Both the position numbers and the translations under genes were made by a program. The notes beneath the pieces are model-generated. The model ran no database searches. It had not been told where the DNA came from and saw nothing but the letters and a program-made list of their open reading frames with translations. A DNA stretch of 64,000 nt from Escherichia coli. Lineage in GTDB: Bacteria > Pseudomonadota > Gammaproteobacteria > Enterobacterales > Enterobacteriaceae. The DNA lies in the NCBI RefSeq assembly GCF_003334785.1, contig NZ_QOWV01000013.1; one strand, 5' to 3'. This document shows positions 24,482 through 25,494 of this stretch, one piece after another. The stretch's first letter is position 1, and each line of letters opens with the position of its first letter.

Positions 24482-24700
24482 TTACCATTCCTCGCGCAGC
24501 TTACGCTGATATTCGACACCATCTTCCTCACACCCTTGCCAGATGCCAGGAACACTGGTTCTTGCTGTTTGCGATTGATTTATCAGGTATTGATCTACCG
24601 CTTCCCTTAATAGGTCCGCACGAGGAAGATTACGCTGCACCTCGAGATCATCAAGTTGCTTAATCACCTCATTCGATAAATCGAGTAAAATTCTGCCCAT
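24482..24700 (-). CDS. yiiF: Ribbon-helix-helix (CopG-like) small protein YiiF
   Basis: Track ORF 24482..24724; start at [18 protein letters not shown] (72 aa); paralogous to yiiE. Confidence 0.8.
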
Positions 24701-24941
24701 ATCTATACCTGCCAGAGAGTTCATAAATATCTCGCCAATATCATTTTTGAATCTATGGAGAGAAAAGTACCCTTGCCGAATCTTTAAAGAAAGCTCATTT
24801 ACGCATCATTTTTTATTTTTGCGAGGCGTTTTCCAGATATGATGTAACAGTTGCAGTTATTATAAGTTCAAGTAAAACAGCCTTGTATTAATACCAGAAT
24901 AAGGGCATCTGTTTTTTATATTCAAGAATGAAAAATTTTTG

Positions 24942-25160
24942 TCATTCCTTATGCTCCTTACACTGATCATCAACACCAACTACCTCCCCCTTTTGCCTGC
25001 CTCCCTTTGCTTTACGCACCGGGAATTGCTGACGTTCCAGATATTGCTCTACCGCTTCGCGTAAAATTGCAGATCGTGAAACCTTACGCCAGCCCCGAAG
25101 CTTGTTCAGCCGTTTAATTGCCTCTTCTGATAAATGAAGAAAAACCGTATTCATCGCCAT
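24942..25160 (-). CDS. yiiE: Ribbon-helix-helix (CopG-like) small protein YiiE
   Basis: Track ORF 24942..25187; start at MAMNTVFLHLSEEAIKRLNKL (72 aa). Confidence 0.8.
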   Translation of the reverse strand: MAMNTVFLHLSEEAIKRLNKLRGWRKVSRSAILREAVEQYLERQQFPVRKAKGGRQKGEVVGVDDQCKEHKE

Positions 25161-25494
25161 TACCAATACCTTACATATATTACTCATTAATGTATGTGCG
25201 AAAATTACGCCGGAAAATCATTTAAAAAAAGCGGATTTTTGCATGTTGTTTTGTTTTTGCGAGGCGTTTTCCAGAAATAATAAGAGTGTTGCAGTTGTTT
25301 CATTTATTACTCAAAAATGGTTTAGTTATCGCCCAGGATGAATTATGGGTGCTATGAATATATTATATTCAGAGATATTTATTTGCATAATCTGAATGGT
25401 GTAGCCGAAAAACGTCAGCATCCTAACAGCACCAGGATTTAAGGTGAAATTAATCTTTCATCACAGACCGGTCAGTACTGCCACCAACCGGTCT

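Follow-up and report, generated by a model that had tools for sequence, protein, structure and literature searches.

The question raised by the yiiF-yiiE locus of Escherichia coli is why two adjacent genes for small ribbon-helix-helix (RHH) proteins, each preceded by a copy of the same DNA segment, stand in the chromosome with no toxin gene at their side. The locus was analyzed in a stretch of 64,000 nucleotides of E. coli DNA (contig NZ_QOWV01000013.1), called the window below. The DNA of the window is K-12-like, and several complete genomes match it at 100% identity. The local gene order is fdoH-fdoI-fdhE on the plus strand, followed on the minus strand by yiiF, yiiE, a pseudogene fragment, fabY (yiiD), dtd, and yihY. 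The analysis indicated that the locus is in all probability a decaying chromosomal type II VapBC module with an antitoxin duplicate found only in Escherichia. The yiiF gene encodes the VapB antitoxin of a module located between fabY and fdhE across the Enterobacteriaceae. Its toxin gene, vapC, is destroyed here and in about 99% of the complete E. coli genomes, with repetitive extragenic palindromic (REP) repeats of the bacterial interspersed mosaic element (BIME) type lying between its surviving ends. The yiiE gene arose by tandem duplication of vapB and its upstream region, in Escherichia only. YiiF would keep a tail able to neutralise VapC, the toxin being gone in this genome, and the promoter/operator block of yiiF would have decayed in both hexamers in the alleles without vapC.

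The two proteins were compared with each other and with the Pfam profile RHH_1. The yiiF gene encodes 80 aa in RefSeq and 72 aa from an internal ATG at 24700; the shorter form, which begins MGRILL, is the likelier product, since several genera have ATT, ATA, or GTG in place of the first ATG. The yiiE gene encodes 72 aa, and a longer open reading frame (ORF) of 81 aa reaches 25187. YiiE and YiiF were 41% identical over 56 aa (pairwise E value 3e-12), with the common motif LREAV(D/E)QYL. As expected for RHH regulators of the CopG family, both matched RHH_1, YiiE clearly (residues 6-43, E value 1.6e-11) and YiiF weakly (residues 16-47, E value 0.009).

The identity of YiiF was apparent from known structures. 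YiiF was identical to the protein of the NMR structure PDB 2K5J, and it aligned end to end with chain A of 7BY2/7BY3, a VapB-VapC complex (E value 3e-29). Moreover, the gene 3' of the yiiF orthologue in Citrobacter matched chain B of the same entries, "Ribonuclease VapC" (E value 5e-65). YiiF retained all of the 11 tail residues that were invariant across 13 VapB sequences. Both parts of a VapB protein are therefore found in YiiF: the N-terminal DNA-binding RHH domain, by identity with 2K5J and homology with 7BY2, and the conserved C-terminal toxin-binding region, as judged from sequence invariants.

In Citrobacter and Pseudocitrobacter, the yiiF orthologue was located at the same position between fabY and fdhE; the next gene, which overlapped it by one base, was a 124-aa PIN gene convergent with fdhE. 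A scan of one genome per species gave 45 non-Escherichia loci (L016-L060), from Citrobacter, Klebsiella, Enterobacter, Salmonella diarizonae, Kluyvera, Trabulsiella, Lelliottia, Kosakonia, Franconibacter, and others. The vapC gene was full length in 42 of the 45 and was truncated independently in L035, L036, and L039. The fdhE gene was convergent and adjacent in 42 of the 45, present only as a fragment in L047, and absent from L044 and L059. The loci with decayed vapC are labelled Chryseobacterium (L035), Citrobacter sp. (L036), and Klebsiella spallanzanii (L039). In one further protein, P0239, a VapB continues in frame into the last ~20 residues of VapC.

In the window, yiiF does not overlap a downstream PIN toxin gene as its orthologues do; both ends of vapC are nevertheless preserved. 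Compared with E. coli carrying vapC, the window was identical at the TAATG stop/start overlap and in the 7 bases that follow. It was identical again from the last vapC codons to fdhE, save for a 15-nt in-frame deletion. The frame of the 3' relic still translates as ...EVVTRNTRDGVVTPYEL*, and its stop codon at 24189-24191 is followed by a hairpin region common to the convergent fdhE. The 228 nt between the relics (24245-24472) were unrelated to vapC in the same alignment. They showed the character of REP/BIME elements, which are imperfect palindromic units of ~35 nt found at many E. coli sites. A 2-kb query matched each E. coli genome at a median of 38 places, and positions 24398-24432 gave an isolated 100% match on an unrelated contig. 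In addition, Rfam gave sub-threshold matches to the REP-derived families naRNA4 and ES036 at 24298-24437. A structured RNA was considered and rejected, as the Rfam matches were only sub-threshold, REP-derived, and within the REP region.

The intact arrangement is still present in the species. An annotated VapC toxin, in the order yiiE-vapB-vapC-fdhE, was found in 57 of 5426 complete E. coli genomes, and RefSeq already annotates the VapC toxin in the strains that carry it. The preliminary description of this DNA had reported no toxin-like ORF downstream of either RHH gene and had treated the missing partner as a puzzle. The report is correct for intact ORFs and incorrect for remains, since vapC relics are recognisable after yiiF. 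The puzzle itself disappears, because a PIN/VapC gene overlaps the yiiF stop in 42 of the 45 loci and in the 57 E. coli genomes. Comparative genomics for a lost partner gene, which the same description had proposed as a check, thus yielded the 124-aa PIN/VapC gene.

The loss of vapC is accompanied by changes in the promoter region. RHH antitoxins generally autoregulate, and the operators of type II toxin-antitoxin (TA) systems normally overlap the promoter. According to Table S4 of Kim et al. 2012 (PMC3415461), the mapped transcription start site (TSS) of Klebsiella pneumoniae yiiF is 4 nt ahead of the annotated ATG, and the sequence upstream of it reads ...AGATTGCTCATAACTTCATCACTGGTGATATACTTGAGGTA, with TTGCTC...TGATATACTTGAGGTA (PMC3415461). 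An extended -10 element, TGaTATACT, is located 7 nt before this TSS, and TTGCTC lies 19 nt further up. The -10 block, ATGATATACTGGAGGTATATATG, was the most widely conserved noncoding sequence of the vapB family, and it holds an inverted repeat, GATATAC-N5-GTATAT(A), spanning the -10 and the TSS. The vapB-type promoter would accordingly be TTGnnn-N19-TGnTATACT, and the RHH operator would be the inverted repeat over it. Among the Escherichia alleles, those carrying vapC retained TTGCTC...TGATATACTGGAGG, as in Citrobacter and Klebsiella. The yiiF alleles without vapC (K-12 type, ST131, two others, and two of E. fergusonii) all had TTCTCT...TGATATTGG. One pattern fits all eight yiiF/vapB alleles examined. 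In the alleles without vapC, both hexamers and the Shine-Dalgarno-like GGAGG were altered, and the conserved core further upstream, described below, was untouched.

The corresponding block of yiiE, CATACATTAATGAGTAATATATGTAAGG, is distinct from the yiiF type. The operator is placed at the -10 block because this block differs between the yiiF and yiiE types and is conserved among yiiE copies. The proteins differ in parallel: the beta-strand is NTVFLHL in YiiE and GRILLDL in every VapB. The -10/operator block therefore appears to have diverged between the two genes in step with their beta-strands. Between yiiE and yiiF, a terminator scan found no terminator, and the fold was not better than that of shuffled sequence (z -0.72). 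Read-through from yiiE may supply yiiF transcripts, since no convincing terminator separates the genes.

The region further upstream was shared by both genes. A 100-nt direct repeat (24762-24861 and 25200-25299) was 73% identical in gapless register. Two stretches within it matched exactly: a 22-mer, TTTTTGCGAGGCGTTTTCCAGA (24816-24837 and 25254-25275), and a 9-mer, GTTGCAGTT (24850-24858 and 25288-25296). By hand arithmetic, the chance expectation of an exact 22-mer pair within 2 kb is ~1e-7. In a gapped DNA alignment, the homology ran from AACTGCAAC through ~170 nt upstream and the whole gene to the stop codons. As judged from these alignments, yiiE is demonstrably a tandem duplicate of vapB together with a ~170-nt upstream region. 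Several claims of the preliminary description were in agreement with our results. The two genes are tandem RHH paralogues, as the 41% identity and the shared motif attest; both products are antitoxin-type RHH proteins; and the duplication did take the upstream region along with the gene. Its near-identical segment of ~46 nt, on the other hand, is to be revised to two exact blocks with 12 diverged nt between them, within ~170 nt of homology.

The conserved core of this region reads TGGAAA-N5-TCGCA(AAA) on the coding strand. In the upstream alignment of all loci, two near-invariant blocks were found, T-TGGAAA(G) and CTCGCAAAA, with a spacer of fixed length and free sequence between them. The pattern TGGAAA-N5-TCGCA was present in 35 of the 45 non-Escherichia loci, with 14 different spacers, and in 1 of 9000 shuffled upstream regions. 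Upstream of yiiE, the core was kept in E. coli, E. fergusonii, and E. albertii, and the spacer bases differed. The identity between the K-12 paralogues was 36% at third codon positions, 73% over the upstream 100 nt, and 22 of 22 in the core. By these comparisons, the two blocks are under selection, because they are conserved across 35 of the 45 loci with varied spacers and exceed the third-codon-position identity. The alignment also shows the core to be a family-wide bipartite element and not a peculiarity of the duplicated genes. For the ten loci measured, the distance from the core to the -10 block was 92-93 nt in seven, and 105-108 nt in Franconibacter and Siccibacter.

Three other readings of the core were tried and rejected. 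A genome-wide repeat or regulon was discarded, since the 45-nt segment was confined to this locus (median of 2 places per E. coli genome, both here). A small conserved ORF across the core was discarded because the reading frame is not the same in the two K-12 copies, nor from genus to genus. A sigma70 -35/-10 reading on either strand would put the invariant block in the spacer and gave no conserved -10.

The preliminary description had proposed the duplicated segment as the autoregulatory operator of YiiE/YiiF, which might also be a distal operator looping to a promoter-proximal one. This would agree with the autoregulation typical of RHH antitoxins. The core is under selection and travelled with the gene in the duplication. 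Its sequence also admits a pair of imperfect direct repeats, CTGG-AAAG and CTCGCAAAAG, set 11 nt apart, and RHH dimers can use this spacing. However, the core lies at -107 to -92 relative to the TSS mapped in K. pneumoniae, which places it ~100 nt upstream of the promoter. It is unchanged before both RHH types despite their different presumed DNA-contacting residues (R, L, D and T, F, H). Furthermore, the core is missing or has diverged in loci such as L043, L044, and L047, where VapB remains MGRILL and the repeat overlapping the -10 persists. The distal position, the retention with both beta-strands, and the loss beside an unchanged MGRILL make the core unlikely to be an RHH-specific operator. 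That it is instead the site of a shared host factor acting on both promoters has, in our estimation, slightly less than an even chance, and a distal operator is the chief competing reading. More tentatively, TGGAAA-N5-TCGCAAAA, ~100 nt upstream of the vapB promoter, could be the docking site of a host regulator that would couple the vertically inherited chromosomal VapBC to a host signal. In that case, YiiE and YiiF might have been kept after the toxin was lost because they serve as RHH regulators that respond to a signal, with recombination shuffling their DNA-binding and tail modules. An atypical sigma54-type complex at this sequence would be a less likely alternative to the host regulator.

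The identity of the upstream core in E. coli might also be ascribed to recent gene conversion between the tandem copies and to no function at all. The chimeric genes described below show that the copies recombine, and the E. coli-specific spacer ACGCC is common to both copies. Nevertheless, the blocks are conserved in 35 of the 45 single-copy species with 14 spacers, and in the yiiE copies of three Escherichia species the spacers vary and the blocks stay. This explanation is improbable as the sole cause, and gene conversion may add to the identity of the core within E. coli.

Even less probable is that the core is a sigma54 (-24/-12) promoter, TGG-N9-TCGCA, serving as a second, enhancer-dependent promoter with a ~100-nt leader. 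The geometry was in agreement with such a promoter: the GG and GC stand exactly 10 nt apart (GG-N10-GC) in TGGAAAACGCCTCGCA, this two-block arrangement is conserved in 35 of the 45 species, and a freely varying spacer of fixed length is expected of -24/-12 promoters. Some sites bound in chromatin immunoprecipitation (ChIP) also start with CTGGAAC or end with TCGCA (Bonocora et al. 2015). Position 7 of the core is G in Klebsiella and Citrobacter. Similarity to bound sites and occupancy in vivo were not found. With a position weight matrix (PWM) built from 135 ChIP-bound E. coli sites (Bonocora et al. 2015), the K-12 core scored 4.9 bits, lower than any of the bound sites (minimum 6.7, median 14.4); 247 positions of the 64-kb window scored at least as high as the core. 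The two top hits of this matrix in the window were the known sites internal to fdoI and at glnAp2, which served as positive controls. The tables and supplements of Bonocora et al. 2015 that were searched list no ChIP-seq peak at yiiE or yiiF. Likewise, no RpoN peak was found there by genomic systematic evolution of ligands by exponential enrichment (SELEX), and no enhancer-binding protein gene was seen at the locus. The sigma54 promoter at the core was therefore rejected on the PWM score and the published ChIP-seq and genomic-SELEX lists. A separate site on the minus strand at 25197-25213, CCGGCGTAATTTTCGCA, which lies 37-53 nt upstream of the yiiE ATG, reached 13.0 bits against the sigma54 PWM, a score that falls among those of the bound sites. 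It occurs in the yiiE copy only, and no sigma54 peak has been reported there.

The distribution of YiiE was narrow. The homologues of yiiE were limited to E. coli, Shigella, E. fergusonii, and E. albertii, and none of the 45 non-Escherichia loci had a second RHH gene. An exhaustive HMMER search of 1.84 billion representatives returned 21 proteins, nearly all YiiE variants or fragments; the nearest non-YiiE proteins, P0237 and P0239, were both of the VapB/YiiF type. The idea that yiiE was acquired independently, for instance as the antitoxin of another lost toxin that landed beside yiiF, could appeal to the identity of just 41% between the proteins and to the variable, AT-rich character of this insertion hotspot, but it is scarcely credible given that the two noncoding upstream regions share 73% identity and one genus-specific spacer, that the DNA homology to yiiF extends to the stop codon, and that no YiiE-type protein was found outside Escherichia among the representatives searched, the nearest outgroup being VapB/YiiF.

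YiiE has diverged mainly in its tail. Of the 11 VapB tail invariants, four were kept, one showed a conservative change, and six were lost (W62, E67, D68, R74, L76, and W80). Both tail tryptophans are thus gone, and the TGG codon of the last one is now the stop codon TGA. The first 52 residues were identical in the four YiiE alleles of E. coli, and the tail was variable. YiiE is now probably a DNA-binding protein only, because the RHH domain is invariant in the four alleles, the tail is variable, and six of the 11 tail invariants are lost.

Chimeric proteins were also detected. P0220 (E. albertii according to NCBI) and P0222 (E. coli) combined the YiiE RHH domain with a VapB tail, with the junction at LREAV|DQYL. 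The switch from YiiE to VapB was further downstream in P0152 (E. fergusonii), and P0202 was the reciprocal chimera. The comparison of these sequences demonstrates that the yiiE and yiiF copies still recombine. In the E. albertii locus, the chimera P0220 was the sole RHH gene and was located directly 5' of an intact 124-aa PIN gene. A DNA-binding domain of the YiiE type with a yiiE-type promoter can, by this arrangement, serve a live toxin, because the chimera adjoins the intact PIN gene as the only RHH gene.

Some points weigh against the reading of the locus as a decaying VapBC module with a duplicated antitoxin. The TSS was mapped in K. pneumoniae and not in E. coli. The literature searched contains no experiment on the binding of E. 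coli YiiE or YiiF to DNA or VapC, and none on toxin neutralisation or operon autorepression by either protein. Judging from a dN/dS of ~0.3 within E. coli, on few sites, yiiF is not simply a dead gene; the dN/dS of yiiE was 0.07-0.33, also on few sites. The 57 E. coli genomes with vapC possibly reflect re-import of vapBC by recombination instead of retention, because their vapB allele has an unusually large distance from the K-12-type one (dS 0.28). On the other side, the vapC relic in the window is identical to the vapC-carrying E. coli allele. We know of no convincing match of the core to the consensus sequences of CRP, FNR, IHF, Fis, PurR, Cra, IclR/AllR, CpxR, SlyA, or the marbox, in an informal comparison.

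Table 1. Coordinates of the features of the yiiF-yiiE locus and of the two sigma54 control sites in the window
Feature	Position	Strand	Description	Basis
3' vapC relic	24189-24244	-	last 18 codons, in frame: (L)EVVTRNTRD, five codons deleted, GVVTPYEL, stop	
REP/BIME repeats	24245-24472	.	in place of ~290 nt of vapC	not alignable to vapC; multi-copy matches
5' vapC relic	24473-24482	-	ATG overlapping yiiF stop, plus 7 nt	alignment to E. coli 2016C-3878 and Citrobacter vapC
yiiF	24482-24724	-	orphan VapB antitoxin; RHH domain and intact tail of VapC-binding type	ORF list, RefSeq annotation
Putative decayed vapB promoter/operator block	24725-24744	-	here ATGATATTGGCGAGATATTT; ancestral ATGATATACTGGAGGTATAT, with extended -10 (TGnTATACT) and GATATAC/GTATAT	
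yiiF upstream homology block	24762-24861	-	22-mer on minus strand includes TGGAAAACGCCTCGCA, occupying 24820-24835	
yiiE	24942-25160	-	Escherichia-only tandem vapB paralogue	ORF, Pfam RHH_1, gene-wide DNA homology to yiiF
yiiE-type counterpart of -10 block	25161-25185	-	GAGTAATATATGTAAGGTATTGGTA; unlike yiiF type	conserved among Escherichia yiiE copies
yiiE upstream homology block	25200-25299	-	core at 25258-25273	
fdoI intragenic sigma54 site IS47	22744-22760	+	CTGGCGCGAATTCTGCA	published
glnAp2 sigma54 site	46317-46333	+	TTGGCACAGATTTCGCT	published

The surroundings of the two genes were variable. The yiiE-fabY interval was a hotspot of variation (25300-26012 in the window, 7648-9387 in L002, and also L009, L010, and L061). 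Many E. coli carry there a 103-aa gene, nadS, for an antitoxin-like helix-turn-helix protein (NCBIfam NadS, 60.7 bits), together with a divergent alpha/beta-hydrolase gene. The gene at the nadS position in Pseudocitrobacter encodes 122 aa with a weak RelE match, and other intervals hold two hypothetical genes or a transposase. The K-12-type interval consists of 474 AT-rich nt with a pseudogene fragment at 25537-25653 on the minus strand, and this segment was present in 3083 of the 5426 genomes. A perfect palindrome resembling a LexA box, CTGT-N8-ACAG (for instance CTGTATGGATATACAG), was found just 5' of the alpha/beta-hydrolase gene divergent from vapB, at 8447 in L002, 9616 in L009, 6890 in L010, and 1130 in L061, and in 26 of the 45 loci L016-L060. 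This suggests that the hydrolase may be SOS-regulated. The palindrome is absent from the window, where the hydrolase gene is deleted.

Insertions between the two RHH genes were also observed. In ST131-type E. coli (L009, 5767-7380), a DUF6708 gene and a hypothetical gene were inserted between yiiF and yiiE, and one E. fergusonii (L062, 2018-2755) had a 245-aa gene there, so that in some lineages the two genes are no longer adjacent. Two loci labelled Bacillus coahuilensis m4-4 (L014) and uncultured Robinsoniella (L015) carried yiiE-yiiF with 100% and 87-92% protein identity to K-12, apparently because the two assemblies are contaminated with E. coli DNA. For YiiF itself, one UniRef cluster (protein P0004) bears the label "Thymol sensitivity protein". 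Defence-system models of PADLOC gave no match for YiiE, YiiF, or VapC.

Previous studies have linked yiiE to global regulators. In K-12, yiiE was reported to be associated with H-NS and to increase 2.5-fold on SlyA overproduction (PMC5797941), and it is among the listed SlyA SELEX targets. This association fits the low G+C content of 24700-26000, which was 32-37%. In addition, Shimada et al. 2017 reported a genomic-SELEX peak of the RpoS holoenzyme in the yiiD-yiiE spacer, at position 4076572 of U00096.2. This position converts to ~25886 in the window, in AT-rich DNA ~700 nt upstream of yiiE.

The locus was compared with known systems. The VapBC of K. pneumoniae is represented by PDB 7BY2/7BY3 (Kang et al. 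2020, J Med Chem 63:13669, as cited in PMC11117207). Its VapB chain aligns with YiiF over both the RHH domain and the ...WQ.CEEDG.EYQR.LR.EW tail, and its module (L038) lies beside fdhE at the same chromosomal position, with the upstream core and the -10 block. Different from it, the window has no VapC apart from relics, both promoter hexamers are mutated, and an extra paralogue, yiiE, is present. Like the orphan (solitary) antitoxins that persist in type II loci after toxin loss, YiiF has an intact ORF that is under some purifying selection and adjoins the remains of its toxin gene. Here, however, the decay is readable at the nucleotide level, and the ancestral haplotype exists in ~1% of complete E. 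coli genomes. YiiE resembled the RHH repressors of the CopG/Arc/MetJ type in its RHH_1 match, its RHH domain invariant in four alleles, and its variable tail, whereas it is demonstrably derived from an antitoxin gene.

In the literature, YiiF has been described solely as an uncharacterised transcription factor, and no paper naming K-12 yiiF as an orphan VapB was found in the literature searched. Two K-12 "y-genes", long regarded as uncharacterised transcription factors, gain an origin, as an orphan VapB and its paralogue. The current understanding of TA systems is not overturned by these results. The stepwise loss of a chromosomal toxin gene is legible at this locus, with the intact haplotype still segregating in the species. 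A short, deeply conserved upstream element is singled out as well. Moreover, the natural modularity of antitoxins is illustrated in E. albertii, where a YiiE-type DNA-binding domain is joined to a VapB tail beside an intact VapC.

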